Source of the DNA: Methanofastidiosum sp.
GTDB taxonomy: Archaea > Methanobacteriota_B > Thermococci > Methanofastidiosales > Methanofastidiosaceae
NCBI GenBank assembly: GCA_020854815.1
Contig: JAHKLW010000043.1
Span: forward strand, 3,170 to 67,169
Reading direction: 5' to 3'
DNA: 64,000 nt
Positions 10,333 to 63,036 of the stretch are shown one piece after another (position 1 is the stretch's first letter; the number at the start of each line of letters is the position of its first letter). The position numbers and the translations under genes are program-made. The notes under the pieces are model-generated. The model searched no databases. It was given only the letters and a program-made list of their open reading frames with translations, and was not told the DNA's origin.

Positions 10333-10448
10333 TCACTAGCCTCTTTGCCTCTTCCATGTGCCATTCTTTTCTTCCTGGCATGTTTTCTGATAAGGGATCT
10401 TCTGCAAGCTCCCTGTGTGCTTTTGCAGATTCAAGATCTGCTATTCTT

Positions 10449-10718
10449 TCACTTTCTGTTCTTTTTTCCATTTCTTTTTTCATCTCCTATTTTTTCTAAT
10501 TTCAGTACATGTATGCAGGGCCTCTTCCTGTTGTACGAATCAGGACATGAGCACCAGTAGTCCGGCCACCCTTCATCAGGCTTGAGATCTATCGATGCGA
10601 TATGCCCCTTCGTAGTTATGCCCCAGAGAAACGAGCCTGCCCTGCCTGTGGCCTTAAATTCAACTTCTGGAATCTTGGCCAGCTGCCCTTTTGTCGGCTC
10701 GTACTCGGATAGCTTCAT
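10449..10718 (-). CDS. SWIM zinc-finger protein
   Basis: 89 aa. WCSCPDSYNRKRPCIHV fits the CxCxnCxH SWIM pattern. Confidence 0.45.
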   Translation of the reverse strand: MKLSEYEPTKGQLAKIPEVEFKATGRAGSFLWGITTKGHIASIDLKPDEGWPDYWCSCPDSYNRKRPCIHVLKLEKIGDEKRNGKKNRK

Positions 10719-11077
10719 TTACCACCTCTAGTTAATTTTAGGGCCAGCTCACAGTCTGGATGTGCCCCGTGCTTCAATTCTGCAAATGTCTGGTAGAATA
10801 GTCCGCAGATTGGGCATGTTTCCTTAGGGGTAATTCTTGATTCGATTTTGAATATGAATCTCCTGTTTGATAATAGAATTGTTACAAGACTTAGACGGTA
10901 GTAATAGATTCCAAATAATCTATCATCCTGTCTTTCTTTCCTTCCAATATCGACATTAATAAAAAATGAGAATATCTTCAGAAAGAAGTAGCCACGTCTG
11001 ATGATCATGTCAAAATGCCTAATGGTCTTCATGGCCTGCCCCCGATGTTCTTCACTTTGAAATAGAAGCCCTTCCAC
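10715..11077 (-). CDS. Hypothetical protein with C-terminal Zn finger
   Basis: 120 aa, with CPICG...HPDC. Confidence 0.35.
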   Translation of the reverse strand: MEGLLFQSEEHRGQAMKTIRHFDMIIRRGYFFLKIFSFFINVDIGRKERQDDRLFGIYYYRLSLVTILLSNRRFIFKIESRITPKETCPICGLFYQTFAELKHGAHPDCELALKLTRGGK

Positions 11078-11523
11078 TGCGATAATGCCCTCTCAACTAT
11101 GCCCCTGAGCTGCTGCTCCTTGTCATATGTGGGCATCTGCTCTAAAGTTCTCAACGTGAGAGACACCTGAATTAGATCAGATATCAGGAGGTCCAACTGT
11201 TCTGGCCCTAACTTTATCATCTGTGTGATTTCCCTCTTGCCGTCAGAATCAATCTTTGGGAAAAGAGATATCGATATGAAGGCCTTGTTATTCATCGTGC
11301 CACGTTCAGGGAGTATTCCTGCAGAGGCTGTGACAAAGTATTTATCCAGAGGGTAGCCGTTCCTGATCTCAAGTTCTACCCCATTCTTTGAAGTTATGAG
11401 GGCCGTTTCCCTCCTGTCTCTCGATAATCCTTTTCTCGGTGTGTCAGGAATGCCAGCGAATAGCTTCTGCTGTGCCACGTCAAGGGGATCTTCTACCTTA
11501 TAGGTCAGAAAAATCCCTCCCAA
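11029..11523 (-). CDS. Hypothetical protein (provirus)
   Basis: 164 aa. Confidence 0.35.
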   Translation of the reverse strand: MGGIFLTYKVEDPLDVAQQKLFAGIPDTPRKGLSRDRRETALITSKNGVELEIRNGYPLDKYFVTASAGILPERGTMNNKAFISISLFPKIDSDGKREITQMIKLGPEQLDLLISDLIQVSLTLRTLEQMPTYDKEQQLRGIVERALSQWKGFYFKVKNIGGRP

Positions 11524-12478
11524 GCCTTGAATTCAAGAAGTCCATCTGTGCATGAAGCCCCTCTCCATAAGCCTCAATCTTTGACCTGTGGGCATCACAT
11601 GCAGTAAATCCATACATTATTGTAGTGGCCTTATTACTGCAGAAGGCGCATGTATAGCTACTGGCCTTAGAATTAAGATCTAATTTCTCCAGGTATGCTA
11701 GAATAGCTTTTAGATATAGCGGCATCCTGGCAAAGTCCATGGCGGCTTCCGGTGTCTCAAACTCTAGCTCAGTGCCTTCCTGATCTGAATCGTCCATGTG
11801 GCAGTCCTGGCCTTGTATGGTGAACTGGTCGAATTTTCCAAAGTTGAATTTAGGATCTTCAAGTACAAAGTGGGGCTTTCTATTGATCTTCCCAAAAGAA
11901 AGCTTTAGGCCAAGGAAACTGTTCTCTAGCTTCTGTGCATAGACGTTTGCAAGATTCAAAGCCTCGCTAAGTAGATCATAGGAGTTTGATTTCCTCTCAA
12001 TCTTGGGGTAAATTATCACACTTTTGGTAGTTTTTTCTATTGTTACAGCTGGCAGTTTTGTGTATTCCTTGGCCCAATTGTTCAAGTTTACCTCTTTGTC
12101 AAGGGTAAATGTGCTAGGAGCGGACAAGATATCATATCTTATGCCTATATTATGCATGGAAAATGAGGCTTTTGTGTTCTCATCCCCAGTGAGGGATTTA
12201 TTGGAACATTGGAACTTTGATGGAACTTTGTTCCCAGTATTGCTTAACACCCTGTATAGCTTAGGCCACTCCGATACCTGTTCGATTAATCCAGACTTTT
12301 CCAGCCTTTGAATTGCCCTAGATACTTTATTCCTTCTTATTCCCATGTTTCGGGCAATCTGTGCAGGATAAAGGCCAGAGTCCAGAAGTGATAAAATCCT
12401 CTCATCTACCAAAGTTCCATCTATTGTTCCACTCTCTGGAACTTTCTGCCCTGCACGATTGGAAGCTTTGCCCTGCAC
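11498..12478 (-). CDS. Winged-helix DNA-binding protein with C-terminal Cys cluster (regulator or replication-associated)
   Basis: 326 aa. wHTH-like LYPAQIARNMGIRRNKVSRAIQRLEKSGLIEQ, plus CAFCSNK...CDAH. Confidence 0.4.
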   Translation of the reverse strand: MQGKASNRAGQKVPESGTIDGTLVDERILSLLDSGLYPAQIARNMGIRRNKVSRAIQRLEKSGLIEQVSEWPKLYRVLSNTGNKVPSKFQCSNKSLTGDENTKASFSMHNIGIRYDILSAPSTFTLDKEVNLNNWAKEYTKLPAVTIEKTTKSVIIYPKIERKSNSYDLLSEALNLANVYAQKLENSFLGLKLSFGKINRKPHFVLEDPKFNFGKFDQFTIQGQDCHMDDSDQEGTELEFETPEAAMDFARMPLYLKAILAYLEKLDLNSKASSYTCAFCSNKATTIMYGFTACDAHRSKIEAYGEGLHAQMDFLNSRLGRDFSDL

Positions 12479-12480
12479 GA

Positions 12481-12906
12481 TTACGACCTCATGCTTTCCC
12501 TTACGGAGAGGTACTGCTCCCCTCTCTTGGTGACGTAGTATTTCCTCGCTTCATCACAGGAGACCAATCGGTCCATGAAGGCCTTGTCAAATGCGGAAAA
12601 TGAGGGGCACTCTGGATTCTTCTTTATGTCTATGATTGAAGTTGGCCCTAATTTTAGAAGCAGCTTTACGAGCCTGTACTCCTGGTCCGCCATGCTCTCC
12701 CACTGGTAGATGGGCTTATCGTTAGACTTCTGGCCAATCTCTACGTCCCGCCTCTTCATCATCTTCTTCAGCCATTCACATTGGGCTGTGGCTGGCATCT
12801 TCTCCCAGATCATCTCCCGAAGATCGTCATGGTCAAGGAAGTTTACGGCCTCTTCCATGGAGAGTGTGATCTTAATCTCCTCACATTTCCCTGGCAGAAA
12901 TATCAC
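12481..12906 (-). CDS. Hypothetical protein (provirus)
   Basis: 141 aa. Confidence 0.35.
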   Translation of the reverse strand: MIFLPGKCEEIKITLSMEEAVNFLDHDDLREMIWEKMPATAQCEWLKKMMKRRDVEIGQKSNDKPIYQWESMADQEYRLVKLLLKLGPTSIIDIKKNPECPSFSAFDKAFMDRLVSCDEARKYYVTKRGEQYLSVRESMRS

Positions 12907-14006
12907 CCGAATGTGAACTTTGTCTTAAGCGAATCCATAACTAGGCCTATCGGATTTGCAAGGGTGATAACGTCAGAGCCTGCAAACAATAGGGCCACAG
13001 GCCTTCCGTCCATATCCATTATGAGGCTTCCAGAATCTCCGCCGTCTGAGAAGGGGTAGGGATTACCTGATTCGATTACTATCTGGCTCTCAAATAGTAT
13101 GCTCCCGCAGTCGTACCATATCCTTGATGCTGCATTTATTCCCGTTATCTTTCCCTCGGTGTAGAATGTTGTCCTTCCCACCTTGTTGACCCTTAGGCCG
13201 ACCTTTGGATTTAGCAGCGGCGATTTAATCGGGAGATCTCCATACTGCCCTAGCTTGCTCTCTATGTCCTTGTTGATCTTTGCTAGGCAGCAATCTACAT
13301 AGTTCACCCCGTTAGGATCTATAAGCACTGCTTCATGCACTGTGGCAACTGCATCATCAGGGCTTACTCCATCGTCATAGTCCCCAGGCTGTATGACCGT
13401 ATCTCCTTTCTTTCCTTTGTTCTCGTTGTTTAAGACATGAAGATTTGAGAGAATGAATCTCTCTCCTGTTTCTATCTCAGGGGGATCTTCTGGATCTGGT
13501 GTTGGAGGTTCGGGGGTATCATCATTAAAAAAAAGCCTCATTAGCCAGTTCCATATCCTGCTTAAGATACTGCCACCTGAAAGAGATCTCTTTACAGCAC
13601 TTCTAATTCCAATGACTACAGCACCTAAAGTTCCGGCTGTGATGTCAATATGCCCTACTGAGATGCCTGCCTTAATCGGCCTCCATCTCTCCTGCTGCGG
13701 CTCTTTTGTTTGTGTCCTGATTGGGGGATTTGCATATATCCTTCCCACCTGAACTACGTCTGTAATCTTTCCGTCAAGCTTTCTAGGGAGCATGTCTATC
13801 TTCTGCTTTTTGAGCTCCTTTGGCGATAGCTTCTTTTCTACCCCGATTACTATGGCATGTACAGGTTTGCCGTTTTCATCGTAGACTGTCTTCTCTTCCT
13901 TCTTCTTGACACCCTCATAGATTATCTGGACGTTGGGATTAGTTTTCAGAATGTCAATATTGCTCAGATGATCCCCTCCTGGAAGTACCTGGAGTATGAG
14001 CTGCAC
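12903..14006 (-). CDS. Trypsin-like (S1 family) serine peptidase with Pro/Glu-rich linker
   Basis: 367 aa. GDSGS active-site Ser motif with upstream candidate His (TVHEA) and Asp (DCCLAK). PEPPTPDPEDPPE linker. Confidence 0.55.
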   Translation of the reverse strand: MQLILQVLPGGDHLSNIDILKTNPNVQIIYEGVKKKEEKTVYDENGKPVHAIVIGVEKKLSPKELKKQKIDMLPRKLDGKITDVVQVGRIYANPPIRTQTKEPQQERWRPIKAGISVGHIDITAGTLGAVVIGIRSAVKRSLSGGSILSRIWNWLMRLFFNDDTPEPPTPDPEDPPEIETGERFILSNLHVLNNENKGKKGDTVIQPGDYDDGVSPDDAVATVHEAVLIDPNGVNYVDCCLAKINKDIESKLGQYGDLPIKSPLLNPKVGLRVNKVGRTTFYTEGKITGINAASRIWYDCGSILFESQIVIESGNPYPFSDGGDSGSLIMDMDGRPVALLFAGSDVITLANPIGLVMDSLKTKFTFG

Positions 14007-14440
14007 TCAATTTTTCTTATTCTAAAAATAGGGCCAAAATTGTCAACTGCCTTGATGTATGTGAGATCTCCAAAAATAGAAAGGCCTTTTATCATCCTCT
14101 TCAGCTGGGCCATCTTGTAGCTTTTTGGCGGCAGGGCTGTCATTGCATCAGTTAAGTATGCTGCAGCTGCCAGCTGCTTGGCCTTGTTGATCATGTCCCT
14201 GATCTCTATCCTTTGAGGATTTATGTCGCCCTCTTTGTTCTGGAGGTCATTTTTCAAGTAGATGTGGTAGAAGATAGCATCGCTTGGAGGGAGCCTTACC
14301 TCGCTTAAGATATCGACAGTCTCACCCCTGGCATTCTTCAAGGGCATGACGTAGGCATTTGGGATTGTGATATCCTCGGCTATTTCTATGCTTGTGGAGA
14401 GTATGAGCCTGTTGTCATTTGTCCCAACTATATGTATCAA
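13964..14440 (-). CDS. Hypothetical protein near att/tRNA end
   Basis: 158 aa, no integrase motifs recognized. Confidence 0.35.
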   Translation of the reverse strand: MIHIVGTNDNRLILSTSIEIAEDITIPNAYVMPLKNARGETVDILSEVRLPPSDAIFYHIYLKNDLQNKEGDINPQRIEIRDMINKAKQLAAAAYLTDAMTALPPKSYKMAQLKRMIKGLSIFGDLTYIKAVDNFGPIFRIRKIECSSYSRYFQEGII

Positions 14441-14787
14441 GTGGAGGCCTCCTCTTTTGCATAGCAGAATAGGAGCATGCCATTGTGGTAATGGTATGGG
14501 ATGTATGTTGGCTGAAGACTTCCATCCTTTCTTCTTGATAGTATGGGCTTGACATTTTCCGCTATGGTGATTGGCACAGACACATATGTCCTCTTGGTAT
14601 TTGAGTAATGGACCGGGAGATTCTTAGCATCCATCTCCTCATCAAACGATAAGGCCACCCATTTCATGTTCTCGTCTATTAAAAATCGGACATAACGAGG
14701 CTTCAGCTGCTGCTCTTCTAGGGCCCTGTTGATGTACATTCTTCTCGGGTAGAGCAAGATCTTGCCCTCTCCTTTGGAGTGCTTCAT
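14437..14787 (-). CDS. Hypothetical protein adjacent to tRNA-Leu
   Basis: 116 aa, coupled (ATGA) to the downstream ORF. Confidence 0.35.
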   Translation of the reverse strand: MKHSKGEGKILLYPRRMYINRALEEQQLKPRYVRFLIDENMKWVALSFDEEMDAKNLPVHYSNTKRTYVSVPITIAENVKPILSRRKDGSLQPTYIPYHYHNGMLLFCYAKEEAST

Positions 14788-14939: not shown

Positions 14940-15027
14940 TGGTGCGGGAGCTGGGATTTGAACCCAGGAAGACCTACATCACAGGGTCCTAAGCCCTGCA
15001 CCTTTGACCAGGCTCGGCAACCCCCGC
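14940..15027 (-). tRNA. tRNA-Leu (anticodon UAG), type II long variable arm, CCA encoded
   Basis: Reverse complement folds as a cloverleaf: acceptor GCGGGGG/CTCCCGC, anticodon stem CAGGG/CCCTG with loop CTTAGGA, 14-nt variable arm, T-arm CTGGGTTCAAATCCCAG. The GC jump occurs exactly at its 3' end. Confidence 0.85.
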
Positions 15028-28167: not shown

Positions 28168-28389
28168 ATGTATCAAAGAATTTTAAAACTGCTTGAGAAT
28201 GAAGAATCTCCTCTTTCTTCAGAGACGATCAGTGAAAAAACAAAAGAAAGTTTAATGAAAACAAAATCTCTTTTATTGCGATTGCAGGAAGAAGGAAAAG
28301 TTGAAAGTACAAAAAAAGATGACATTATAGTATGGCAGATAAAGAAAAAGGATGATGTTGAGAAGAAATTTGAAAAGATGGGAAGATAA
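28168..28389 (+). CDS. Small wHTH-like protein
   Basis: Internal start MYQRILKLLENEESPLSSETISEKT... chosen. The longer ORF-track version overlaps lplA. Confidence 0.3.
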   Translation: MYQRILKLLENEESPLSSETISEKTKESLMKTKSLLLRLQEEGKVESTKKDDIIVWQIKKKDDVEKKFEKMGR

Positions 28390-30596
28390 TGCCTTTTTCT
28401 CACCCCTTTATTAAAGGGGAGATATCACCTAGAACCTACCAAGAAACTATTTTTGTGAATAGTAAAGATAAAAATACCTTAGTTATTTTACCGACAGGCC
28501 TTGGGAAAACATATATCGGGATTTTACTTGCAGCCTATACTCTACACTCTTTAGAAAAGAAAGTTTTGGTCTTAGCACCAACAAAACCACTAGCCGAACA
28601 ACATTTGAAATCATTTTCAGATATATTAAATATTGAAAAAGAAAGTTTTTCTCTTCTGACTGGAACAGTGGCTCCCACTAGAAGAAATGAGCTTTATATA
28701 AAATCTTTAGTTGTGATTGCTACCCCCCAAGTAATAGAGAATGATATATTGGGTGGAAGAATAACTTTAGAAGATTATGGTCTTATTATTTTTGATGAAG
28801 CCCATCGTGCAAGTGGAGACTATGCTTATACCTACATAGCGGAAAAAGCTATATCAAAAAATATCAGAATTATGGGATTGACTGCTTCGCCTGCCTCAGA
28901 TAAAGAAAAGATGAAGGAAATCATTCATAATCTTGGAATAGAAAATATAGAAATTAGGAATGAAACCTCATCCGATGTCAAATCTTATGTTCAAGACATA
29001 AATATATCGTGGGTTTCAGTTAAACTTCCTGATGAATTTCTTGAAATAAAAAAGTTGCTTGAGATATTACTAAAAAAAGAGATTACAGCACTGAAAGATC
29101 TTGGATTTGTTTCATCCCAAGATGTTTCAAAAAAAGAGATATTGAGCACTGTAATCAAAATAAATAATAAAATTAAAGAAGTTCCACCACATGAAAAATC
29201 TGTTTACTATGGTGCTCTGAAATCACAAGCAAAAGCCCTAAAGGTATATCATGCCTTGGAATTATTGGAAACCCAAGGTATATCGCCATTAATATCCTAT
29301 TTCAAAAGAATGAGGGATGGTAAAAGCCGTTCTTCGTTAGAGTTGCTTTCTGAAAAAACTATTATGAAGATAATAACAATGGCCAATAATTTGAATCAAC
29401 AGGGAATTGAACATCCAAAACTTTCAAAATTATTTGAAATTGTTGTAAAAGAAGTTAATGATGGAAAAAATATAATAATATTTTCCCATTACAGAGACAC
29501 CACAATGAGGATTGTAAAAGAGTTAGATAGCTTTGAAGGTGTAAAAGTTGAAAGATTCGTTGGTCAAGCCTCAAAAAAAGGAGATATGGGTTTATCTCAG
29601 AAAAAACAGAAAGAGATAATTGAAAGATTTAGATTAGGAGAGTTTAATGTTCTTGTTGCAACTTCAGTTGCTGAAGAAGGTCTTGATATTCCTGAAGTGG
29701 ATATGGTTATACTGTTTGAGCCTGTGCCTTCCGAGATAAGGTCAATTCAGAGGAGAGGCCGAACTGCTAGGAGAAGAAGTGGGGAAGTTATAATTCTCAT
29801 GGCAGAAAATACTAGAGACGAAGGTTATTATTGGGCAAGTAAGAAGAAAGAAAAGCAAATGAAACTTACTGTAATGGAATTAAAAAGAGATTTTAGGAAA
29901 AGTGATGAAATGATTATGGCAGAAAAGGGTCAAAGTAAATTAAAAGATTTTGTCAACATGCCAGATATCATAGCAGATGATAGAGAAGACAAAAAGGTGT
30001 TAAAAATTTTATCAGAAAACGCTAATATCAAAATAAATCGTTTAGAAGTTGGGGACTACATACTCTCAAACAGAGTTGGAGTTGAAAGAAAATCTTCTAA
30101 TGATTTTGTTGAATCACTTATCAATGGAACTCTTTTCCCACAAATTTTATCGCTGGCCAATAATTTTGAAGTCCCAATATTGATAGTAGAAGGGGAAGAT
30201 GTTTATTCTATAAGGAATATGGATAAAAAATCTATCCGTGGCGCAATTATCTCGGCCATGGTAGATTTCAGAGTTAGACCTATTTTTACAAAAAATCCGG
30301 AAGAAACTGTCAATTTTCTCGTTGATATTTCATTAAGAGAACAGAAAGAAAAAGATAGGATGCCCATAATCAGAGGAGAAAAAAAAGTAATGAGCCTAAG
30401 GGAAAAACAGTTATTTATTGTAGAAGGTCTTCCTGAAGTATCTTCAATACTTTCCAGAAGGTTACTACAAAAGTTTGGCAGTGTGCTTGGAGTTTTTAAT
30501 GCTGATGAAATCGAACTTAAGGAAGTTGAAGGTGTTGGAGAAATAAAGGCAAAGAAGATACGAGAAATTGTAGATTCCTTGTATGAAGAAATCTAA
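28389..30596 (+). CDS. hef: Hef (helicase-associated endonuclease for fork-structured DNA), long form
   Basis: LPTGLGKT, DEAH (IIFDEAHRASG), helicase-C QRRGRTAR, ERCC4 nuclease ERKSSNDFVESLINGTLFPQ, C-terminal HhH2. Confidence 0.9.
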   Translation: MPFSHPFIKGEISPRTYQETIFVNSKDKNTLVILPTGLGKTYIGILLAAYTLHSLEKKVLVLAPTKPLAEQHLKSFSDILNIEKESFSLLTGTVAPTRRNELYIKSLVVIATPQVIENDILGGRITLEDYGLIIFDEAHRASGDYAYTYIAEKAISKNIRIMGLTASPASDKEKMKEIIHNLGIENIEIRNETSSDVKSYVQDINISWVSVKLPDEFLEIKKLLEILLKKEITALKDLGFVSSQDVSKKEILSTVIKINNKIKEVPPHEKSVYYGALKSQAKALKVYHALELLETQGISPLISYFKRMRDGKSRSSLELLSEKTIMKIITMANNLNQQGIEHPKLSKLFEIVVKEVNDGKNIIIFSHYRDTTMRIVKELDSFEGVKVERFVGQASKKGDMGLSQKKQKEIIERFRLGEFNVLVATSVAEEGLDIPEVDMVILFEPVPSEIRSIQRRGRTARRRSGEVIILMAENTRDEGYYWASKKKEKQMKLTVMELKRDFRKSDEMIMAEKGQSKLKDFVNMPDIIADDREDKKVLKILSENANIKINRLEVGDYILSNRVGVERKSSNDFVESLINGTLFPQILSLANNFEVPILIVEGEDVYSIRNMDKKSIRGAIISAMVDFRVRPIFTKNPEETVNFLVDISLREQKEKDRMPIIRGEKKVMSLREKQLFIVEGLPEVSSILSRRLLQKFGSVLGVFNADEIELKEVEGVGEIKAKKIREIVDSLYEEI

Positions 30597-39391: not shown

Positions 39392-40519
39392 TTATTCCTT
39401 AATTATTTCTAGTATTGCTTCTTTAGGAACTCTTAGGTGGATAAGATTTTGCTTTCCACGCCCTCTTGACTGAGCCCTTTGAATGTCGACTATCTTAAGA
39501 TTTTCAAGTTTTGATGTTGCCTTTCTAAAGAGTTCGTATGACATCTCTTCTTCTAAGATATGGAAGAAATCACTTGCTTTTGTGAATTTACCAGAGTTTT
39601 CAGCTAAAACTTTCAGGACTTTTTTGTCTGTTTTTGATAGTCCATCGAAGACATTTTTGACATGCAGAGAAGAGCTGATACGTTCTATTGCTTTTTCAAC
39701 ATCATCGATAATTATTTTTTTTCGTCCATCGAGTTCTGCCAACATTGCAGCGTCCTTTATTCCTCTTATCCCAAGTCTTAAGTCGCCTTTCTCAAAAGTT
39801 ATTTCTGCAATTTTGTCTAAGACTTCCGCTCCCATCACTCCAGGATAAAGTCCAATTTCAGAACGGTATTCAAGAATATCATGTATTGTATCTTGAGAAT
39901 AAGATTTAAAGTGAACTTCATTTGGCATGAACACAGTCCTAATTTTTTCTGAAACTTTAAATGAAAACGCATTGTCTGTTATAATACCGATAATTCCTGT
40001 TTTAACTCCAGGATATATCTCATGCGCCCTTAGAATTTTATAAAGAATATTTTCTGCAATATTAACATGAAATAAAAAATCCACATCGTCCAATGCTACT
40101 AGTAATGTTTTATTTTTTTTCTGTAGTTCTCCCATTGTATATTCATAAAGAGTCGTTAATGGTTTTCCGGTTTCTACGGGGGGATATCCAAAAAGTCCTC
40201 TGAAAATCTGAGACATTATTGAGAATTCTCGGTAATGAAATTGACAATTTATGTAGACTGGAACAACATTATTTGAAACTTCAGTTATTTCTTTAAAGAG
40301 TAATTTGATTGAAGTGGTCTTTCCTGTGCCTGTTGGCCCTAAAACGATAGTATTTGTTGGAAAATCTCCTTTTATTAAAGGTTTTACGTTGTGAGAGATT
40401 GCTTCAAGTTCATTGTCCCTATGTTTGAAAACCTCCGGTATGTAACTAAGATCAAAGACTTCGGGATTTCTGAAAAGCGATTCATCCCACATCAAAATAT
40501 CCTTTATTTTGCTTGACAT
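39392..40519 (-). CDS. cdc6: Orc1/Cdc6 replication initiator
   Basis: AAA+ Walker A VLGPTGTGKTT and C-terminal winged helix. Confidence 0.9.
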   Translation of the reverse strand: MSSKIKDILMWDESLFRNPEVFDLSYIPEVFKHRDNELEAISHNVKPLIKGDFPTNTIVLGPTGTGKTTSIKLLFKEITEVSNNVVPVYINCQFHYREFSIMSQIFRGLFGYPPVETGKPLTTLYEYTMGELQKKNKTLLVALDDVDFLFHVNIAENILYKILRAHEIYPGVKTGIIGIITDNAFSFKVSEKIRTVFMPNEVHFKSYSQDTIHDILEYRSEIGLYPGVMGAEVLDKIAEITFEKGDLRLGIRGIKDAAMLAELDGRKKIIIDDVEKAIERISSSLHVKNVFDGLSKTDKKVLKVLAENSGKFTKASDFFHILEEEMSYELFRKATSKLENLKIVDIQRAQSRGRGKQNLIHLRVPKEAILEIIKE

Positions 40520-42613: not shown

Positions 42614-43108
42614 ATGATATGCGAAATATGTGGAAAGACCATACAAGGAAAAATCTTCAATGTAAGAGTTGAAGGTGCCAGTGTAAAGGTTTGTGATAAA
42701 TGTTCGAGATTTGGAACAGACCGCCAGAGTTGGTCAAAATTTGGCAAAGGCCCTGCGAGTTCAGATGGATTAGTGCTACCATCAAGACCAAAATTTAGTG
42801 GCGGGCCAGTGAAAACGAGAGAAGAATATAGTCTAGTAGATGACTACCATCTAGTTATAAAGGATGCTCGAGAAGCCAAGGGATGGTCTCAGAAAGATCT
42901 TGCTAGGAAAATGAATGAAAAAGAATCTATAATCCATCATATTGAAACAGAAGGTTTCGCGCTTTCTAATGAACTTATCCAGAAACTTGAAAGAGTACTG
43001 AATATTAAACTCAAAGATAAATCAGATGAAGGCATTGAAATATCCAAATATAAACAAAATTTAAAGGAAACAACAATAGGCGATATAATCAAGATAAAGA
43101 AGAAGTGA
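42614..43108 (+). CDS. mbf1: Archaeal multiprotein bridging factor 1 (aMBF1)
   Basis: N-terminal Zn ribbon CEICG...CDKC plus C-terminal XRE-type HTH KGWSQKDLARKMNEKESIIHHIE. Confidence 0.8.
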   Translation: MICEICGKTIQGKIFNVRVEGASVKVCDKCSRFGTDRQSWSKFGKGPASSDGLVLPSRPKFSGGPVKTREEYSLVDDYHLVIKDAREAKGWSQKDLARKMNEKESIIHHIETEGFALSNELIQKLERVLNIKLKDKSDEGIEISKYKQNLKETTIGDIIKIKKK

Positions 43109-44234
43109 GGCATCTAATGAAAACTGTCGCATATTCGCCTTTATAGAGAAAGAATTTGAATCTTGCTCCTTCTTCTTCAATGCTGAAAGAAAGATCTTTG
43201 TATCCTCCCAAGATATTCCTATACGCACCGTTAGATGCTAAAAATGGTGCTTCTTTTACACGAAAACTTTCTTTCGATATTCCTTCACTTCCTATTAATT
43301 CCATTGACAACTTTCCCAGAAGAGACTTAGGAATCAAAGAGCTGTAACCAATTAAAGGTGCTATAACATTTATTTCTCCTTTTTTTATACCTTCTTTTAC
43401 CCGCACAAGATTGGATTTATTTACCTGTGTCCTATAGTAGTTGCCCTGTTTTTGCATTGATACAAGATCACCCACCTCAACTTCATTTAGTGGAACTTCT
43501 TTTATTCTTTCGAGAACAACTTGATTGAATATTTTTGCCTGATAAGCATGAACAAAAAGAGAAGAAACTGAGGGAGGTAAAACAATAAAAACTTTGGCGT
43601 AATCTGGTGCTTTTGACAAATATTCCAAGATTTGTTTTTCATTTCTTAATTTTGGATATAATTCAAGTGCTTCTGCATACTTTCCGTCTTTAATTAAATC
43701 AGCTGCCTCTCCACTAAGATTATCCTTTAATAACAAAGTTTCAACTGCCTCTTTGAATTGGCCTTTCAATATAAGTCTCCCAACTTCCTCGTTGCCCCCA
43801 AATCGCTGCCCCCCAAAAAGGTTTGGAAATCCAGATTGTCCTTCTATTTTCTGTATATTGAATTGTATTTTTTCATCAGAATTATTTGGAATGTTCCTCA
43901 CAAGAATGTTAAATTTGTTTCCTACTAGATCACCGATATCAATCTTCTGCCCTTTTGAAAAATCGAATAATTCTGCGTCTTTTAATTCTATACTCTTTAG
44001 AATATCTTCATAGATTCTTTCAATAGAAAAACTCTGGATAGTTACTGCATGCCTATCTTTGAGTCCTGCGTACCCAAATTTACTAAAAGGTATTCCTGTC
44101 TTTCTCGCTATTTCATGAATGACATCAAGCGTGTCTCTATTTATTTTTTTTACCTTGAAAACAAGATATTTGCCTCTTGTGAGATTTATGACTTCCTCTA
44201 CTTGAAAATCTTCGGGATATTTTTTTATTTCCAT
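43089..44234 (-). CDS. truD: tRNA pseudouridine synthase TruD (Pus7 family)
   Basis: PEDFQVEE N-terminus and FGYAGLKDRHAVTIQ catalytic-Asp motif. Confidence 0.8.
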   Translation of the reverse strand: MEIKKYPEDFQVEEVINLTRGKYLVFKVKKINRDTLDVIHEIARKTGIPFSKFGYAGLKDRHAVTIQSFSIERIYEDILKSIELKDAELFDFSKGQKIDIGDLVGNKFNILVRNIPNNSDEKIQFNIQKIEGQSGFPNLFGGQRFGGNEEVGRLILKGQFKEAVETLLLKDNLSGEAADLIKDGKYAEALELYPKLRNEKQILEYLSKAPDYAKVFIVLPPSVSSLFVHAYQAKIFNQVVLERIKEVPLNEVEVGDLVSMQKQGNYYRTQVNKSNLVRVKEGIKKGEINVIAPLIGYSSLIPKSLLGKLSMELIGSEGISKESFRVKEAPFLASNGAYRNILGGYKDLSFSIEEEGARFKFFLYKGEYATVFIRCLTSSLS

Positions 44235-44243: not shown

Positions 44244-44897
44244 CTATGTCACGCGAGTACTTAATTCGGTTAAAGTAAAGAAATCCCCTATTCCGGTCCA
44301 CCGGATCCTCAAAGGTCCACCATATAAACCAGGTGTCTGTGTCCTAAGAATTACATCAAATCTTAAATTTTCCCTAGGGATCATTGAATCAATTGTAATC
44401 TCATTGCTGATCAGTCTTACCCTTGCATCCGATACTCTCACTACTTGGAATCCCCTCATATACGACTCAGGTAATGAAATTCTAATATTCTGAGCATTTT
44501 CATTAGATGTATTTGTAAGACTAAAAGATACTGTTACATTTTCACTCGGATGAAAAGTTGAAGATGTCCATTGTACTTCAGTTGCTACCCACACTACAGG
44601 TATGTCCCAAGATTGAAGTTGAAGCTGTAACACTTCATTTTTCTTTAATAGATCCTGAATCTGGAAAGTATAATTTCTGACAACTGAATCATACTGTGAT
44701 TTTTCTGTTTCAAGGACAAGAAGTTTATTCTCAAGAATTGTCTGCTGCCCCTGAAGCTTTGTTATCTCTTGATTTAGAGTGTTTACTCTCTGACTAAGTA
44801 CGGTATTTTGATTGTTCAGAAGGCTTATATTGTATACCGATATTACAAGCCCTACTGCCAAAATAAATGTTGCGACTACAAATACTTCTTTCTGCAT
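44244..44897 (-). CDS. Membrane-anchored coiled-coil protein
   Basis: N-terminal TM VVATFILAVGLVISVY, heptad-rich segment, C-terminal beta-rich domain. Confidence 0.4.
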   Translation of the reverse strand: MQKEVFVVATFILAVGLVISVYNISLLNNQNTVLSQRVNTLNQEITKLQGQQTILENKLLVLETEKSQYDSVVRNYTFQIQDLLKKNEVLQLQLQSWDIPVVWVATEVQWTSSTFHPSENVTVSFSLTNTSNENAQNIRISLPESYMRGFQVVRVSDARVRLISNEITIDSMIPRENLRFDVILRTQTPGLYGGPLRIRWTGIGDFFTLTELSTRVT

Positions 44898-44906
44898 AAA
44901 TCCTCC

Positions 44907-45749
44907 TTAACTTATTATATCCACGGCAAAATCCATAATGATTCTACCAAAGCTTTCTGGTAGAATGTCTATTAGGATGAGTGTCATGTTTTTATTATAT
45001 ACTTTTATTTTATCTTCTCTATATAGTTCTAGTATTTTATAAGATATATCTCTTCTTGTTTGTTTATCATATTCGGCCAAATTGAGCATATTTAAGGATA
45101 TTTCCCCTATTATCTTGCTCTTAACTCTCCAAAGACTTGTTTCGGGAACATCTTTGATAGCTGTCGGATCAACTATTGGGAAGGCTTTCCCCTGGACAAT
45201 CTGTTTAGCCATTATTCCAGTAACATTACCTTTTGCAGTGATATCCTTCTGCTGCCCCAATATCGTAATCTGTTGAGTAAAATCAATAGGAACATATCCA
45301 ACTACATCGACTAATTCCTTTAACGTATCAGAATCTATAACAACTACCCTTGTAATATCAATTTCAGATTGCCCTTTTGAAATTTGCTTTGCGTGGCTCA
45401 CCCCAGTTCGTATATCAGATGCTTTTATCAAAGAGTTGTTAATGTTTATCCCCAAAGAACTTAGAGCAGGATTTGTTGATAATGGATCTATATCCACACT
45501 GCTTCCATTTGGCCTCAAATTAGAGAAAATAATGACAGAAGAAACTTCTAGCGTTCCAGGATTACCTTTCTCTTCGTCTATGAAAAGGAATAGAGTATTA
45601 TCATTTCCCAATCTATAAACGTCATAAAATACCCCGGCAAATAGAAGTGCCACTAATAGGACGAAAATTATGGGCCATTTCCAACCTACTGATTTTTTCT
45701 TTGAATCTTTTTTTTGATTTTTGGCTTTTGTATCATTATTTTTTGCCAT
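44907..45749 (-). CDS. Membrane-anchored extracytoplasmic protein, unknown family
   Basis: Lys-rich N-terminus, then TM WPIIFVLLVALLFAGVF. 280 aa. Confidence 0.4.
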   Translation of the reverse strand: MAKNNDTKAKNQKKDSKKKSVGWKWPIIFVLLVALLFAGVFYDVYRLGNDNTLFLFIDEEKGNPGTLEVSSVIIFSNLRPNGSSVDIDPLSTNPALSSLGININNSLIKASDIRTGVSHAKQISKGQSEIDITRVVVIDSDTLKELVDVVGYVPIDFTQQITILGQQKDITAKGNVTGIMAKQIVQGKAFPIVDPTAIKDVPETSLWRVKSKIIGEISLNMLNLAEYDKQTRRDISYKILELYREDKIKVYNKNMTLILIDILPESFGRIIMDFAVDIIS

Positions 45750-45822
45750 ATTTTCTCACCAATAAGTTCCTATCTACTATTTATTCCTAAAAATATTTAA
45801 AATTACCTATCAAGATAGCATT

Positions 45823-46761
45823 ATGAAGATACTTTGCCCCAACTGTAGGGCCACAATACTCTTCAAAGGTGATGAAAAATATCTACTTTGCTCAAACTGT
45901 AGAATTAAAATAAAGATGCCTACAAAGAAGGATTACCCAAATATAACGCCAAATCTTATTGAAAAATGTTCTATATGTGAAAAGGTAATAAAATCTTCCA
46001 AAAACAAAAGAAGATGCCCTGTTTGTGGACAAAAAGTATGCTCTTCATGTTGGAATTATTCAAGACTTGTTTGTAAGAGGTGTCTTGAAGAAGGTATAAC
46101 TTCCAAGCCGCTTTACACACTTAAAGAGAAGAATTCAAGGCCAAAACTATTCTTAAGAGAAGAGTTCCTTGAAGATATAAAAGAAGGAGAGATAGCATCG
46201 ATACCTATCAAGGTAAAAAACCTAGGAGATGAAGATGCTTTAAATGTTAAGGTAGAGGTAAGATCTTCTCCAAATATTAAAACAATTGAATCAGCCGACA
46301 TAGGAAAAATAGAAATGGAAAAGGAAAAGCGATGCATATTGAGATTTACTCCAAAGTATAGCGGTAAGGGTAGTATTGAGATTCTTTTATCATATGAGGA
46401 TTATGGCAAAAACAAGTTTTTTGAAAGTGTTAAATCAGAGTTTGATATCAAAGAGAAAAAGAAACGAGAAGAGAAAAGATGGGATTACCAGAAATGGAAC
46501 TATGACTCCAAAAAAGAAAAACGGAGAGAAGAGCCAATCAAAAAAGATAGCGATTCTCTTGAAGTGCTATTAAAACAGTTTGGATGCGCTCCCGATGCAT
46601 CAATTGAAGATATTAAAAAGAGGAAGAAAGTGCTAAACATGATGTACCATCCTGATTTCAATGTGAATAAGCCAGATCAAGTCAAGAAAGAAATGGAAGA
46701 TATGTTAAAGGAAATAAATGAAATCTATCAAAAAATCTTGAATAAAAAAGGAGAAAAATAA
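45823..46761 (+). CDS. J-domain protein with N-terminal multi-Zn-ribbon and central beta-sandwich (CARDB-like) region
   Basis: Four CxxC pairs in the N-terminus. IPIKVKNLGDEDALNVKVEV-type middle domain. C-terminal J domain with HPD (LNMMYHPDFN...EINEIYQKI). Confidence 0.6.
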   Translation: MKILCPNCRATILFKGDEKYLLCSNCRIKIKMPTKKDYPNITPNLIEKCSICEKVIKSSKNKRRCPVCGQKVCSSCWNYSRLVCKRCLEEGITSKPLYTLKEKNSRPKLFLREEFLEDIKEGEIASIPIKVKNLGDEDALNVKVEVRSSPNIKTIESADIGKIEMEKEKRCILRFTPKYSGKGSIEILLSYEDYGKNKFFESVKSEFDIKEKKKREEKRWDYQKWNYDSKKEKRREEPIKKDSDSLEVLLKQFGCAPDASIEDIKKRKKVLNMMYHPDFNVNKPDQVKKEMEDMLKEINEIYQKILNKKGEK

Positions 46762-59243: not shown

Positions 59244-61799
59244 TCAAATCCCTATTGTAGTTCTAGAAAGAGAACCTTGATTTTCAACTCTAGATACCCC
59301 GTCTCTTTTTGTAACCTTTAATACATGATCAACGTAGCTTTCAATCTCTGGCTCATGAGAAACTATGATTACTTGATTCATATCAAGCATGTCGAGGACA
59401 TCCCTTACTCTATCAAGTTGTTTTCTTGAAAAACCGTCTGTTGGTTCATCAAGGATTATAAGATCCTGTGTTTTTATTTCGTCGACAAGATTATTTATTA
59501 TTCTATTTAAGGCCAGCCTATATGCAAGCGCAACAGAGGTTCTTTCTCCGCCTGAGAGAGATTCATAGTCTGCATCAAAACCTTCTTGTCTTAAAACTGG
59601 TGTGAAATCCTCATCTATTGTGACTTGTATTTCATCGCCTTCCAATAAATTCTCAAGCCACTTGGAAAAATAAGATTCAAACTGAATTCTAAGTGATTCC
59701 ATAAACTCTTTTTCCATTGTTTCCATTAGACTAATGAAATAAGTGTCAAGCCAATTAGTCATTTTTTCTAATTTTTCTTTTACTCGTAGATATTTTTTCT
59801 TTTCTTCAATCTCTTTGCTCACTCTAATAAAATCATTTCCAAGAAGTTCAAATTCTTTTGATTTTTCTGCTTCTTCTCTTTCTTTTTTGATTTTTTCATC
59901 AGATATTATTTTTAATTCTTGGGAAATTGCTTGTTTTTCAGAATCTATGCCTGAGAACTCTTTTTGTTTTTCTTTTAGAATATGTATATTTCCAAATAAG
60001 GTATTCTTTTTATCATTTAATGTTTTCATTTCTTGCTTAAAATTCAATGCCTCTTTGTAGTTATTTAAAAGCATTAGGTATGAATCCTTATTTTTTTCAA
60101 GTTCATTTATCTCAGATTCGACTGGGGCGAGTTTTTGTATTTCATCTAGTATTTGTTTCTGTTCAAGAGATCTATCCTTAAGTTCTTCATTTAATTTTTT
60201 GAATTGAGATTTTGTGTCATTCAATTCTTTTGTTAGAACTTTAAAAGAATCAGTTTCTTTGATTAACTGTTCGAGTTTTAGTATCTTCTCTTTTTCAAAA
60301 GAAATCAAATTTGTGGATTTATTTTCTAAATCTTTTTCAATTTGTTTTAACTTAGTTTCAACTTTTTTAATAAGTTCATTTGTTTCGTTTAAATTGACTC
60401 CAAGGACATTTTTTTCCTTCTCAATTCTTTTGATCTCGTTCTGTCTATGACCTTTAGATATACTCTGTTTACATAGAGGGCATAAAGCAATCCCTTCAAG
60501 ATTGCTCAATGACTCTAAATCATTTTCAAGAGATCTAATATCTCCACTAATAATGGAACTTTTATCTTTGTATTCTAGAATTTTTGTATTGTATCTTTCC
60601 TTAGATTTCAGTAGCCCATCTATTTCTTTGTTAATTCCTTCTTTCCTCTGATATATTCCCTCTATATTCTTTTGAAGCTCCGATATTTCGGCTTTTATTG
60701 TCTCTGTAGTTCTATCGTAATTAGCATTTAAAGATGAAAGTGCTTCTCCCTTTGATTTAATATCATTAGATAATTTTGATAGCGTCTCATTTTTATTTGA
60801 TAAATCAACTTCAATCTTTCCTGCTTTAACTTTATAATCGTTGAGAAGGTCTCTTTTTTCCTTGGATTCTGAAAGATTATCAAAAATAACTTTAATATTA
60901 TTTTCAATGAATAAAATTTCTTTTTTTATATCTAGATCGTATTTGCCATCTAATATTTGATTAATTTTCGTATCAAGAGCCGATATATTTTGCTCATAGG
61001 TGTTTAGCTCCCCTTCTTTAATAGCGATCTCCTTTGAGAGTTCCTGGAATTTTTTATAATTATATTCTATTTCTTCTGATTTCTGTGTTAATTCCAGTTC
61101 TTTTATCTTAAATCTCTCTAAACACTTTTTTATTTCATACACTTCCTTAGTTAATTCTTCCTTTTTGCCGGAAATGCTTTTCAGTTCCTCATTTTTTTCA
61201 TTTAAACCTTTGGAAAGAAGTTCATAACTTGATGCACTTCGTTTAAGATCGAGTCTTAAATTGTTAGAATTATCTTTTATTATCTTATATCTATCAACTC
61301 CAAAAATCCTTCTTAGGATCTCCATTCTATCTTCTCTTTTGGATACTAGGATCTGTTTCATCTCCTCCTGTGGAGTGTAAACAGTATAACGGTAGATTGG
61401 GTTCTTTTGTTTTGTAAACAATTCTTTAGGATACCCCAATAATGAGAGTATTTCTGCTTTGAGTTCGGTGGGAGTCATGTCTCTCCTATTACCCTCGATT
61501 GAGATATAGCCTGTAGTCTGGGATATTGTTTCTCCTTTTTTTTGTAGACTTCTCCCGACTATTACTTCTTTGCCTTCTAATTCAAATTCTAACCTTACCA
61601 TTGCTTCTCGTTCACCTCTCCTGAGGAGAGAAGAAGCCATTATGTCTCCCAATCCAAATAATGAAAATTCTATTGCAAGTAATATTGTCGATTTACCAAA
61701 TCCAATGTCCCCCGATAATAAAAATGAGCCTTCTGGAAAATCAATCTTTTGATGTTGATAACTTCGTATGTTAAGCATTTCAAGTGCGAGTAACTTCAT
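59244..61799 (-). CDS. rad50: DNA double-strand break repair ATPase Rad50
   Basis: Walker A GDIGFGKST, long coiled coil with CPLC zinc hook, signature LSGGERTSVALAYRLAL, Walker B LIILDEPTDG. Confidence 0.9.
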   Translation of the reverse strand: MKLLALEMLNIRSYQHQKIDFPEGSFLLSGDIGFGKSTILLAIEFSLFGLGDIMASSLLRRGEREAMVRLEFELEGKEVIVGRSLQKKGETISQTTGYISIEGNRRDMTPTELKAEILSLLGYPKELFTKQKNPIYRYTVYTPQEEMKQILVSKREDRMEILRRIFGVDRYKIIKDNSNNLRLDLKRSASSYELLSKGLNEKNEELKSISGKKEELTKEVYEIKKCLERFKIKELELTQKSEEIEYNYKKFQELSKEIAIKEGELNTYEQNISALDTKINQILDGKYDLDIKKEILFIENNIKVIFDNLSESKEKRDLLNDYKVKAGKIEVDLSNKNETLSKLSNDIKSKGEALSSLNANYDRTTETIKAEISELQKNIEGIYQRKEGINKEIDGLLKSKERYNTKILEYKDKSSIISGDIRSLENDLESLSNLEGIALCPLCKQSISKGHRQNEIKRIEKEKNVLGVNLNETNELIKKVETKLKQIEKDLENKSTNLISFEKEKILKLEQLIKETDSFKVLTKELNDTKSQFKKLNEELKDRSLEQKQILDEIQKLAPVESEINELEKNKDSYLMLLNNYKEALNFKQEMKTLNDKKNTLFGNIHILKEKQKEFSGIDSEKQAISQELKIISDEKIKKEREEAEKSKEFELLGNDFIRVSKEIEEKKKYLRVKEKLEKMTNWLDTYFISLMETMEKEFMESLRIQFESYFSKWLENLLEGDEIQVTIDEDFTPVLRQEGFDADYESLSGGERTSVALAYRLALNRIINNLVDEIKTQDLIILDEPTDGFSRKQLDRVRDVLDMLDMNQVIIVSHEPEIESYVDHVLKVTKRDGVSRVENQGSLSRTTIGI

Positions 61800-63036
61800 C
61801 TAAATCCTCCAGAAGTTTATTTTTTGAAAGATAATCAATTGATTCACTTAAAATACCTTTTGTGTAATCATCTTTCTTTTCACCTTCTTTTTTCTCTCTT
61901 GATAAAATAGTCATGAAGGTCTTTAGAAAAGAAACTGTTTCCGTCTTGCAATCCTTGAGTTTGACTTGATCTTTGTGGCGAATTATTACGTCTTCTTCAA
62001 GTTTTTCTTTGGTAAATGAAGAATTTTTTATTTCTTTAAACTCATTAGTTTTGACATCTCTAGTGTCCCTTTTTATTAGAAGTGCCCCTTTATTTTCTAA
62101 ATACAAATTAATCTTCTTGAAATTAATATCCGATAATTTTCCTTCAATTTTTCCCTTGAACTTTACAATGACTATACAACCTTTAATATCATTTTTATCA
62201 GCTACATGTCTAACCTTCTCTTCAATATTAATTGGGTGGATTCCTTCCAAATTAATATCTAAAAGAATTACTTGAGCGACTCTTATAGTTATATATCTTT
62301 TGTTTATATTTCCATTATCATAGTTAACTAAGTAAAATCCCCCTCCCTTAAATGAGAGGAGCTCATCAATGTTATTGGGAAATAATGCGCCAGGAAATAC
62401 AACGTTCTTATAATCTCCCACGTTAAATTCTCCCCTTTCATGGATATGCCCACCAGCATAATAAAAAAATCCTTTAGGTAGTAAAGATATGGGCATTGAT
62501 TCCATTTGGTAAAGACCCTCAGGTTTTAATTCTTCAATAGCAGAGTGAAATAAAAATATTTTCTGACATTGTTCTTTTTCAAGTTCTTCCCTATCAAGTA
62601 CATTATAAGTAGTCTTTTCTAAACTACCTCTTAAGCCAGATATTCCATAAATTTTAGTTTTTGTCTTTTCATCGAAAATCCCATTTAACTTTAACTTTCC
62701 ATCAGTTTCTGTTCCAGAAGTGACTCTTTTAAGGAGTCCAGCTTCTTGAAAAACTTTTAATATTGTTCTTCCTGTTGGTGAAAAATCATGAGATCCTTCA
62801 ATAACGTATACAGGTATTTCTTTAACTCTAAGTTCATACAATTTTTTTGCTGCTTTTGCCATTACTTCAATTGTAGGATTAGATGAATCAAAGAGATCAC
62901 CAGAAACTAAGATAAAGTCAACATTCTCTTGGATAGAAATATCAATAGCTTTTTCAAAAGTTTTAATTCCTATTTCTCTTAAAGTGTCTTCTCTCCAACC
63001 ACCTAAATGGAGATCAGCCATATGCGAAAATTTCAC
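61780..63036 (-). CDS. mre11: DNA double-strand break repair nuclease Mre11
   Basis: Phosphoesterase motifs MADLHLG, VSGDLFD, GSHD, GGHIHE. Confidence 0.9.
   Translation of the reverse strand: MKFSHMADLHLGGWREDTLREIGIKTFEKAIDISIQENVDFILVSGDLFDSSNPTIEVMAKAAKKLYELRVKEIPVYVIEGSHDFSPTGRTILKVFQEAGLLKRVTSGTETDGKLKLNGIFDEKTKTKIYGISGLRGSLEKTTYNVLDREELEKEQCQKIFLFHSAIEELKPEGLYQMESMPISLLPKGFFYYAGGHIHERGEFNVGDYKNVVFPGALFPNNIDELLSFKGGGFYLVNYDNGNINKRYITIRVAQVILLDINLEGIHPINIEEKVRHVADKNDIKGCIVIVKFKGKIEGKLSDINFKKINLYLENKGALLIKRDTRDVKTNEFKEIKNSSFTKEKLEEDVIIRHKDQVKLKDCKTETVSFLKTFMTILSREKKEGEKKDDYTKGILSESIDYLSKNKLLEDLDEVTRT

Follow-up and report, generated by a model that had tools for sequence, protein, structure and literature searches.

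A C-terminal J-domain protein with N-terminal zinc modules in Candidatus Methanofastidiosum, a probable class C co-chaperone

J-domain proteins other than DnaJ set where and on what Hsp70 acts, and few of them have been described in archaea. The 64,000-nt stretch of DNA from Candidatus Methanofastidiosum that we analyzed, hereafter the window, carries a gene for a candidate protein of this kind beside the genes of two proteins with membrane anchors (p280 and p217), and raises the question of whether its J domain is genuine, which partner that domain would serve and whether the two neighbors have any part in its work. The J-protein gene (45823..46761, forward strand) encodes 312 residues that comprise, in order, a zinc ribbon, an eight-Cys FYVE/RING-like module, an Ig-like beta-sandwich, a Lys/Glu-rich linker and a C-terminal J domain. 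Our preferred reading, to which we assign a probability of about 0.65, is that of a lineage-specific J-domain co-chaperone of class C (type III), which resides in the cytoplasm and steers Hsp70 to a specific target.

The J domain (residues 246–312; 46558..46758, forward strand), which an earlier note had read from the sequence, was found to be genuine based on profile matches, its predicted fold, an invariant HPD motif and strong purifying selection (dN/dS 0.035). Pfam DnaJ (PF00226) matched the protein of the window with an E value of 8.3e-6 and 26.3 bits, 1.5 bits short of the gathering score of 27.8, and the same model is precomputed on eight of the 11 orthologues and flagged 'weak' on the identical gene. 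The NCBIfam DnaJ and ActJ models also match the protein, and all 24 PDB hits of a 12-orthologue profile were J domains, the best with an E value of 7e-4. An AF2 model of residues 236–312 (pLDDT 82.5, pTM 0.64) is compact and helical, its helices II and III forming an antiparallel hairpin and helix IV being merged into helix III, and nearly all of its best ~49 Foldseek hits in the PDB were J domains (TM 0.5–0.68). Helix I spans residues 246–253, and the H276-P277-D278 motif, invariant in 12/12 sequences, is set in the model between the basic helix II (261–274) and the long helix III/IV (285–309). Superposition of the model on E. coli DnaJ in its complex with DnaK (5nro_B) gave an rmsd of 1.8 Å over 55 columns at 36% identity. 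Helix II reads IKKRKKVL (I264-KKRKK-V270), its K265 and K269 correspond in the alignment to R22 and K26 of DnaJ, and we take it as established from the 5NRO complex that helix II of DnaJ contacts the Hsp70 nucleotide-binding domain. The helix III motif KEINEIYQKIL corresponds to KEIKEAYEVL. The position of DnaJ Y25 is occupied by Lys, which, like the sub-threshold Pfam score and the merging of helices III and IV in the model, counts against the preferred reading.

The N-terminal part of the protein contains six CxxC pairs, at residues 5, 23, 49, 65, 73 and 84, and not the four that had been counted earlier, and all 12 of their cysteines are invariant or nearly so among 12 orthologues. This cysteine layout, together with hairpins in the AF2 model and weak ribbon matches, agrees with the previously proposed zinc-binding N-terminus, and from it we infer that zinc is bound. 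The zinc ribbon (residues 1–33, C5-x2-C8 ... C23-x2-C26; 45823..45921, forward strand) was delimited by cysteine conservation and two-strand hairpins in the AF2 model, and has weak matches to zf_Rg and DZR_2 in Pfam and to the eS27 and RPA12 ribbons in the PDB. The eight-Cys FYVE/RING-like module (residues 46–90; 45958..46092, forward strand) has the pattern CxxC-x12-CxxCG-x3-CxxC-x7-CxxC, presumably binds two zincs and, with a dN/dS of 0.033, is under tighter constraint than the rest of the protein. Every weak match to this module was a cross-brace zinc finger, including Prok-RING_2 (E 0.0095), B-box, FYVE and IBR in Pfam, and comparison with FYVE domains in the PDB (RUFY1, Vps27, EEA1 and ZFYVE19) gave E values of 0.03–0.7, the best being 0.027 for RUFY1. 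Its likeness to FYVE, RING and B-box fingers and to Prok-RING_2 consists of eight Cys arranged as four CxxC pairs with similar spacing, and its basic KNKRRCPVCG...VCSSC...LVCKRC resembles the FYVE motifs R(R/K)HHCRxCG...C..C...RVC..C. In contrast to those fingers, the module has neither WxxD nor the His pair, the matches are below significance (E 0.01–0.7), and a lipid or E2 partner cannot be inferred from the FYVE/RING-like spacing. The same 12-Cys layout also occurs in an unrelated 170-aa protein, P0031.

The zinc modules are followed by an Ig-like, seven-stranded beta-sandwich (residues 119–209; 46177..46449, forward strand). A CARDB-like sandwich had been proposed for this segment, and its beta-sandwich is present in the AF2 model (strands at residues 125–209), but the name CARDB (PF07705) falls below threshold, as the Pfam match (E 0.0011) scores 19.6 bits against a gathering score of 22.7. 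Foldseek neighbors of the sandwich are generic Ig-like domains, among them appendage domains, C3 MG domains and FixG-related domains. The Lys/Glu-rich linker (residues 210–245; 46450..46557, forward strand), which also contains Trp and Tyr, is predicted to be disordered (pLDDT <50 at 211–242) and has a dN/dS of 0.22, with only the first linker being less constrained. The protein is soluble, and hydropathy analysis identified no hydrophobic 19-mer, transmembrane segment or signal peptide in it.

Comparison with known systems indicates how unusual this combination of modules is. The protein shares with class A DnaJ/Hsp40 a J domain (33% identity to the E. coli DnaJ domain), a Cys4 zinc module and a beta-sandwich, but these elements come in the opposite order, the J domain being at the C-terminus (246–312), and there is no G/F region. 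Neither DnaJ_C nor DnaJ_CXXCXGXG of Pfam matched the protein at E values up to 1, its six CxxC motifs all lack a following GxG, and it is not a member of class A/B DnaJ. With the class C protein DjlA of E. coli, which has a TerB-DnaJ architecture (PMC10410713), it has in common a C-terminal J domain joined through a flexible linker to an unrelated targeting module, the HPD motif, the basic helix II and a presumed role in local recruitment of Hsp70, whereas it lacks a transmembrane or TerB module, in whose place it carries the zinc ribbon, the eight-Cys module and the Ig-like sandwich. DnaJ-Fer of the Thaumarchaeota (PMC3564930) is likewise a non-canonical archaeal J domain fused to a metal-binding module, but it is a ferredoxin fusion of plant origin that occurs widely across its phylum, and only the J domains are related. 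The protein is a new architectural variant among class C J-domain proteins. Its 11 orthologues are 75–92% identical to it, one of them being annotated as 'DnaJ domain protein [Ca. Methanofastidiosum methylothiophilum]', and when 1.84 billion representatives were scanned exhaustively with HMMER, the full-length architecture was returned as a single 50%-identity cluster, which confines this architecture to the Methanofastidiosum genus.

The closest J domains found are those of the P0013 family in other Methanofastidiosia MAGs, which are 42–50% identical and belong to differently built proteins. The two families share a 5-residue insertion after HPD, the signature LLK.FGC..A ... HPDFN.xKP, the C-terminal position of the J domain and an aromatic, charged linker ahead of it. 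The P0013 proteins differ in having an N-terminus of their own, composed of transmembrane helices and an OB-like domain rather than zinc modules and an Ig sandwich, and in their gene neighborhoods, which contain LTD, SNase and STAND-ATPase genes and neither p217 nor p280. The presence of the same J subtype on otherwise different proteins is what would be expected if a common partner has been kept across the class. A protein with a zinc ribbon and an LTD domain that is encoded after a P0013-type J gene was considered as an unfused N-terminal half ('Rosetta stone') and ruled out on its transmembrane segment and extracellular LTD. Similarly, P0020, the best-scoring N-terminal J protein, was rejected as the canonical DnaJ of the lineage, as its 2.4-kb contig carries no taxonomic information.

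The three ORFs that the earlier note had placed at this locus are all present, with the J-protein gene accompanied on the reverse strand by the genes of p280 (44907..45749; 280 aa) and p217 (44244..44897; 217 aa). Median dN/dS values across ~10 genomes of 0.06 for the J-protein gene, 0.08 for p280 and 0.09 for p217 (0.10 for truD) demonstrate that these are real genes and not chance ORFs. The p280 gene has a GGTGA ribosome-binding site upstream, and the p217 gene has GGAGG 9 nt before its ATG, directly past the p280 stop codon. The description of the membrane genes as divergently oriented applies only with respect to the J-protein gene, from which they are separated by 73 bp, as p280, p217 and truD (tRNA pseudouridine synthase D; 43089..44234, reverse strand; PF01142 in syntenic loci) are co-oriented, with gaps of 9 nt at both the p280/p217 and p217/truD junctions. 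The three genes are probably one operon divergent from the J-protein gene, with truD as its last gene. Within the 73-bp spacer, the promoter block CTAAAAATATTTAARAYTACCTAT (45787..45810, forward strand) is invariant in 13 genomes, and the rest of the spacer varies. It contains a TATA-like element, TATTTAAA (45794–45801), whose center is ~26 nt upstream of the ATG of the J-protein gene, a distance that implies a leaderless mRNA; the J-protein gene is monocistronic and its mRNA probably leaderless. The element is nearly palindromic and, judging by this symmetry, could also serve the divergent p280 operon. A scan for bacterial sigma-70 promoters and terminators gave no excess over shuffled sequences, its model being a bacterial one that is unsuited to an archaeal host.

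Both neighbors are membrane-anchored, as had been proposed, each having one N-terminal hydrophobic segment by hydropathy (residues ~5–27 in p217 and ~23–45 in p280). The p280 protein has a Lys-rich cytoplasmic tail of 22 residues, one transmembrane helix and an extracytoplasmic domain of ~230 residues, and gave no Pfam, NCBIfam, PHROG or PDB match. Its 88 homologues are all at least 67% identical and come from Methanofastidiosum/Methanofastidiosa wherever they are named. An assignment of p280 as LCP/DUF4012-like was rejected, the Pfam match being of just 13 bits and the PDB yielding nothing. In p217, the transmembrane helix is followed by a coiled coil (~28–95) and a C-terminal beta-rich domain (~100–217); the coiled coil had been noted earlier, and the sole weak matches to residues ~25–95 were FtsL, spanin, BRE1 and other coiled coils. 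At the sensitivity used, the J protein, p280 and p217 were found only in this genus/class.

The possibility that the J protein, p280 and p217 cooperate as a three-gene envelope module, for example by drawing Hsp70 to the membrane on its cytoplasmic side to assist the insertion, secretion or turnover of p280, p217 or other envelope proteins, with co-regulation from the shared 73-bp spacer, had been raised in the earlier note in the form of a functional unit, and we consider it unlikely. The three genes do occur together, adjoining one another in 18/18 loci that span the region, but all of these loci are from one collinear genus and their co-occurrence is uninformative on function. Every genome found keeps the order of the entire PAN-MBF1-TruD-p217-p280-J block, and since PAN, MBF1 and TruD are equally collinear within this single genus, adjacency says nothing about function. 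Cooperation would fit with all three genes being lineage-specific, and so forming an island between housekeeping genes, with the near-palindromic TATA block, the only conserved element of the spacer, which could fire both ways, and with the strongly basic character of both the FYVE-like module and the p280 tail. However, the two membrane proteins expose only ~4 (p217) and ~22 (p280) residues to the cytoplasm, which is little to bind, the P0013-type J proteins are encoded in unrelated neighborhoods lacking both genes, and the p217 beta domain was rejected as a homologue of the J protein's sandwich (hhalign probability 0.3%). By analogy with zuotin, the protein might instead be tethered to RNA, DNA or the ribosome through its basic zinc ribbons and Lys/Glu-rich region and place Hsp70 at such a site, a reading to which we give the least credence. 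The net charges of the zinc modules (+5 and +7) and the linker (+5), the overall pI of 9.25 and weak matches of the N-terminus to the L37Ae, eS27, S29, RPA12 and RpoM ribbons and the reverse-gyrase zinc finger are consistent with it, yet those matches have E values >0.01, reflect cysteine spacing and are at least equaled by FYVE/RING-type ones; in addition, there was no match to an RNA-binding domain and no neighborhood link apart from truD.

A further question is whether the J domain has an Hsp70 to work with. There is no dnaK or grpE within the 64-kb window, whose only two ORFs of at least 550 aa encode a Hef-like helicase/nuclease and a Rad50-type ATPase (a look-up of the latter, to reach past the end of the window, gave no exact record), and a literature search returned nothing usable on dnaK, Hsp70 or chaperones of Methanofastidios*. 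GTDB places the Methanofastidiosum lineage with the Thermococci, which counts against an Hsp70 partner; 'uncultured Thermococci archaeon' appears in record titles, and, to our knowledge, cultured Thermococci/Thermococcales lack Hsp70 (DnaK/DnaJ/GrpE). This classification favors an orphan J domain that signals to PAN, Cdc48/VAT or the thermosome, or is a plain interaction module, a reading we hold to be less probable than the envelope module. Also in its favor are the insertion and the HPDFN in place of HPDRN or HPDKN, which mark a distinct subfamily, and the location of the PAN gene 3.4 kb from the J-protein gene. The DnaK/DnaJ/GrpE cluster is carried by nearly all mesophilic archaea, and the exception, most Methanococcales (PMC3564930, PMC12874294), again suits an orphan J domain, but the near-universality of the cluster means that the prior favors a DnaK partner, as does the general presence of DnaK in mesophilic archaea, whose growth optima average near 37 °C (PMC12874294). 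Moreover, the domain superposes on a DnaK-bound J domain, and there is no known Hsp70-independent role that keeps HPD and a basic helix II invariant at a dN/dS of ~0.035. The more specific proposal, that Methanofastidiosia, as mesophilic relatives of the Hsp70-less Thermococcales, are without DnaK and that an HPDFN J subfamily, varied in its modules by genus, would activate PAN, Cdc48 or the thermosome, is more doubtful still.

On the preferred reading of a class C co-chaperone, the C-terminal J domain would dock on Hsp70 (DnaK) via its HPD loop and basic helix II and, once docked, would trigger ATP hydrolysis by Hsp70. The zinc ribbon, the basic FYVE/RING-like module and the Ig-like sandwich would bind a specific client, partner or surface, and Hsp70 would thereby be recruited to the place bound by these N-terminal modules, with the disordered linker acting as a tether. 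We infer the Hsp70 partnership, as well as the zinc binding and targeting role of the N-terminal modules, from the features described above.

These findings suggest that an uncultured methanogen lineage has built its own specialized J proteins by joining one J-domain subtype to different targeting modules. The practical value of the protein is limited, as its family is restricted to a single uncultured genus. If DnaK is present in the lineage, the protein would be a handle on a lineage-specific Hsp70 client, and if it is not, the protein would be a pointer to a hitherto undescribed partner of J domains. Should that partner be a non-Hsp70 machine, this would be the first prokaryotic case of an intact HPD J domain put to a conserved use that does not depend on Hsp70.

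The 312-residue protein encoded at 45823–46761 (+), referred to here as the J protein, ends in a genuine J domain at residues 246–312. Against the Pfam DnaJ model the protein scored an E of 8.3e-6, 1.5 bits short of the curated cut-off; the NCBIfam DnaJ and ActJ models cover the same residues, 8 of 11 orthologues carry a precomputed PF00226 assignment, and the PDB sequences matched by a profile of 12 orthologues were J domains in all 24 cases. An AF2 model of residues 236–312 was confident (pLDDT 82.5), and J domains were nearly all of its best ~49 Foldseek matches in the PDB, including that of DnaK-bound E. coli DnaJ (5nro_B), which superposes with an rmsd of 1.8 Å across 55 aligned columns at 36% identity. 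The HPD motif is invariant among orthologues, helix II is basic, with K265 and K269 aligning with R22 and K26 of DnaJ, and helix III carries KEINEIYQKIL where DnaJ has KEIKEAYEVL. Within the protein, dN/dS is lowest in an eight-cysteine module (0.033) and the J domain (0.035), all such ratios being rough because dS is saturated. The bona fide J domain recognized in an earlier note on this DNA was thus borne out by profiles, fold, the invariant HPD, the basic helix II and constraint, while an HPD occurring by chance is ruled out by the sequence-profile, structural and conservation evidence together.

The J protein is basic (pI 9.25) and has no hydrophobic segment. It has six CxxC pairs, rather than the four counted previously, distributed between a four-Cys zinc ribbon (residues 1–33) and the eight-Cys module (residues 46–90; CxxC-x12-CxxCG-x3-CxxC-x7-CxxC). 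None of the weak matches to the latter was significant; all were cross-brace fingers, namely Prok-RING_2, B-box, FYVE and IBR in Pfam and several FYVE domains (E 0.03–0.7) in the PDB. The same twelve-Cys layout recurs in P0031, an otherwise unrelated 170-aa database protein, and the region is therefore an independent module. Residues 119–209 are predicted to form a seven-stranded Ig-like sandwich with generic structural neighbours; this agrees with the beta-sandwich proposed in the earlier note, and the Pfam CARDB match fell short of significance, at 19.6 bits against a threshold of 22.7. A Lys/Glu-rich segment with Trp and Tyr (residues 210–245), predicted to be disordered and weakly constrained, leads into the J domain. 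The same kinds of parts (J domain, Cys-rich zinc module, beta-sandwich) make up class A DnaJ, but in reversed order, and as the G/F region, CxxCxGxG motifs and DnaJ_C are absent, the J protein is not a class A DnaJ. Like DjlA-type class C proteins, it couples a C-terminal J domain to a putative N-terminal targeting module, although it has none of their targeting domains.

The best-supported reading, to which we give a probability of about 0.65, is that the J protein is a class C J-domain co-chaperone. Its J domain would trigger ATP hydrolysis in a putative Hsp70 partner, an established activity of J domains, while the zinc modules and sandwich may select the client or location. An orphan J domain, with no Hsp70 partner in Methanofastidiosum, is quite unlikely; it retains a slim chance because, to our knowledge, Hsp70 is absent from the cultured Thermococcales, which are classified as relatives of this lineage. 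However, genes for DnaK, DnaJ and GrpE were found in all mesophilic and thermophilic archaea surveyed except most Methanococcales (PMC3564930), and the mean growth optimum is ~37 °C for archaea with DnaK versus ~78 °C for those without (PMC12874294); the prior therefore favours the presence of DnaK and GrpE in Methanofastidiosum.

Next to the J gene lie genes for two single-pass membrane proteins, p280 (280 aa; 44907–45749, −) and p217 (217 aa; 44244–44897, −), and ORF calling reproduced the previously proposed positions of all three exactly. Judged by substitution patterns among about ten genomes, the three evolve as real genes, with median pairwise dN/dS, again rough given saturated dS, of 0.06 (J gene), 0.08 (p280) and 0.09 (p217), compared with 0.10, 0.09 and 0.04 for the housekeeping neighbours truD, MBF1 and PAN. 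By hydropathy, a single transmembrane helix in p280 joins a Lys-rich tail of 22 residues to an extracellular domain of ~230 residues; in p217 the transmembrane helix is followed by a ~70-residue coiled coil and then by a beta-rich domain. No family match beyond coiled-coil noise was obtained for either in Pfam, NCBIfam, PHROG or PDB. The p280 protein matches 'hypothetical protein KO464_05900 [Candidatus Methanofastidiosum sp.]' at 100% identity, and all 88 of its homologues share at least 67% identity with it. The two membrane proteins had been described as divergently oriented; both diverge from the J gene, but they are co-oriented with each other and with truD (tRNA pseudouridine synthase D; 43089–44234, −), with 9-nt gaps and a GGAGG before p217, and p280-p217-truD is probably one transcription unit. 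The 73-bp spacer between the J gene and p280 contains one invariant block, CTAAAAATATTTAARAYTACCTAT, whose TATA-like core has its centre ~26 nt before the start codon of the J gene, implying a leaderless J-gene transcript. This block is nearly palindromic and so is possibly a bidirectional promoter. Although the region is collinear elsewhere, the downstream flank of the J gene differs among genomes, and the J gene is therefore monocistronic. Some genomes have, directly 3' of it, an inserted gene for a protein with PQQ/beta-propeller-like 'YAINPNGTQKWRF' repeats; in L008 (11040–12052, between the J gene and the methyltransferase gene) it contains a masked/unresolved N run.

A functional unit of the J protein, p280 and p217, as the earlier note suggested, appears improbable, if somewhat less so than an orphan J domain. 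The sole argument for it, a mild one, is that the three adjacent genes have the same genus-restricted distribution. They are indeed adjacent in all 18 loci covering the region, but so are PAN, MBF1 and TruD, and co-occurrence cannot discriminate because all the genomes belong to one collinear genus. Against a unit, p217 and p280 expose only ~4 and ~22 residues, respectively, to the cytoplasm, related J proteins from the rest of the class are encoded beside other genes, and the p217 beta domain is unrelated to the sandwich of the J protein.

Elsewhere in the window, positions 1–14500 have 43–47% G+C, versus ~33% in the host (the value from 15 kb onward), and encode a portal protein (2516–3727), large (5253–6740) and small (7294–7827) terminases, an HTH regulator (11498–12478) and a phage-type protease (12903–14006), all on the minus strand. 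This stretch, whose left end lies beyond the window, adjoins a tRNA-Leu (14940–15027, −) and is probably a head-tailed provirus integrated there in the Methanofastidiosum genome. The window also carries genes for replication and repair: a Hef-type helicase/ERCC4 nuclease (28389–30596, +), Orc1/Cdc6 (39392–40519, −; ~5 kb from the J gene) and, at 59244–63036 (−), a Rad50-type ATPase whose gene overlaps that of a calcineurin-type phosphoesterase, the latter Mre11-like by position.

Methanofastidiosum is an uncultured genus of methyl-reducing methanogens, also called WSA2. When the family profile was run exhaustively with HMMER against 1.84 billion representatives at 50% identity, only one full-length representative was returned; a k-mer search gave 11 clusters at 75–92% identity, and a scan of 185,579 species genomes gave 14 loci. 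Those loci identified below class level were from Methanofastidiosum or Methanofastidiosia, the others having higher-rank titles only (uncultured Thermococci, Methanobacteriota). On these results, the architecture is confined to the genus. The best partial HMMER matches (E 1e-14) were proteins of 183–281 aa with transmembrane helices and an OB-like domain in their N-terminal parts and a C-terminal J domain that shares with the J protein a 5-residue insertion after HPD and the signature LLK.FGC..A...HPDFN.xKP. The only named one is from 'Candidatus Methanofastidiosia archaeon', and their gene neighbourhoods are unrelated to the J-gene locus. Around the P0013 family of such proteins (L025:5126–12533 and L023:8922–11679, in other Methanofastidiosia) there are three further genes, encoding a zinc ribbon plus LTD membrane protein, a staphylococcal-nuclease-like protein and a 1284-aa AAA_16/STAND-type ATPase, a neighbourhood that resembles a variable or defence-type island. 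In P0012 (183 aa, ENA), a Gar1-like N-terminal part (PF04410) is followed by the C-terminal half of a J protein of the P0013 type; the gene lies on a 1.1-kb contig and represents a genuine fusion or else a chimeric gene call.

An orthologue with 90% identity to the J protein is already annotated publicly as 'DnaJ domain protein [Candidatus Methanofastidiosum methylothiophilum]'. The novelty lies in the architecture of the J protein and in its belonging to a J subfamily specific to the class. The Methanofastidiosia thus seem to own a J-domain subtype that is attached to differing targeting modules, and its occurrence on such varied modules is consistent with conservation of a partner throughout the class.
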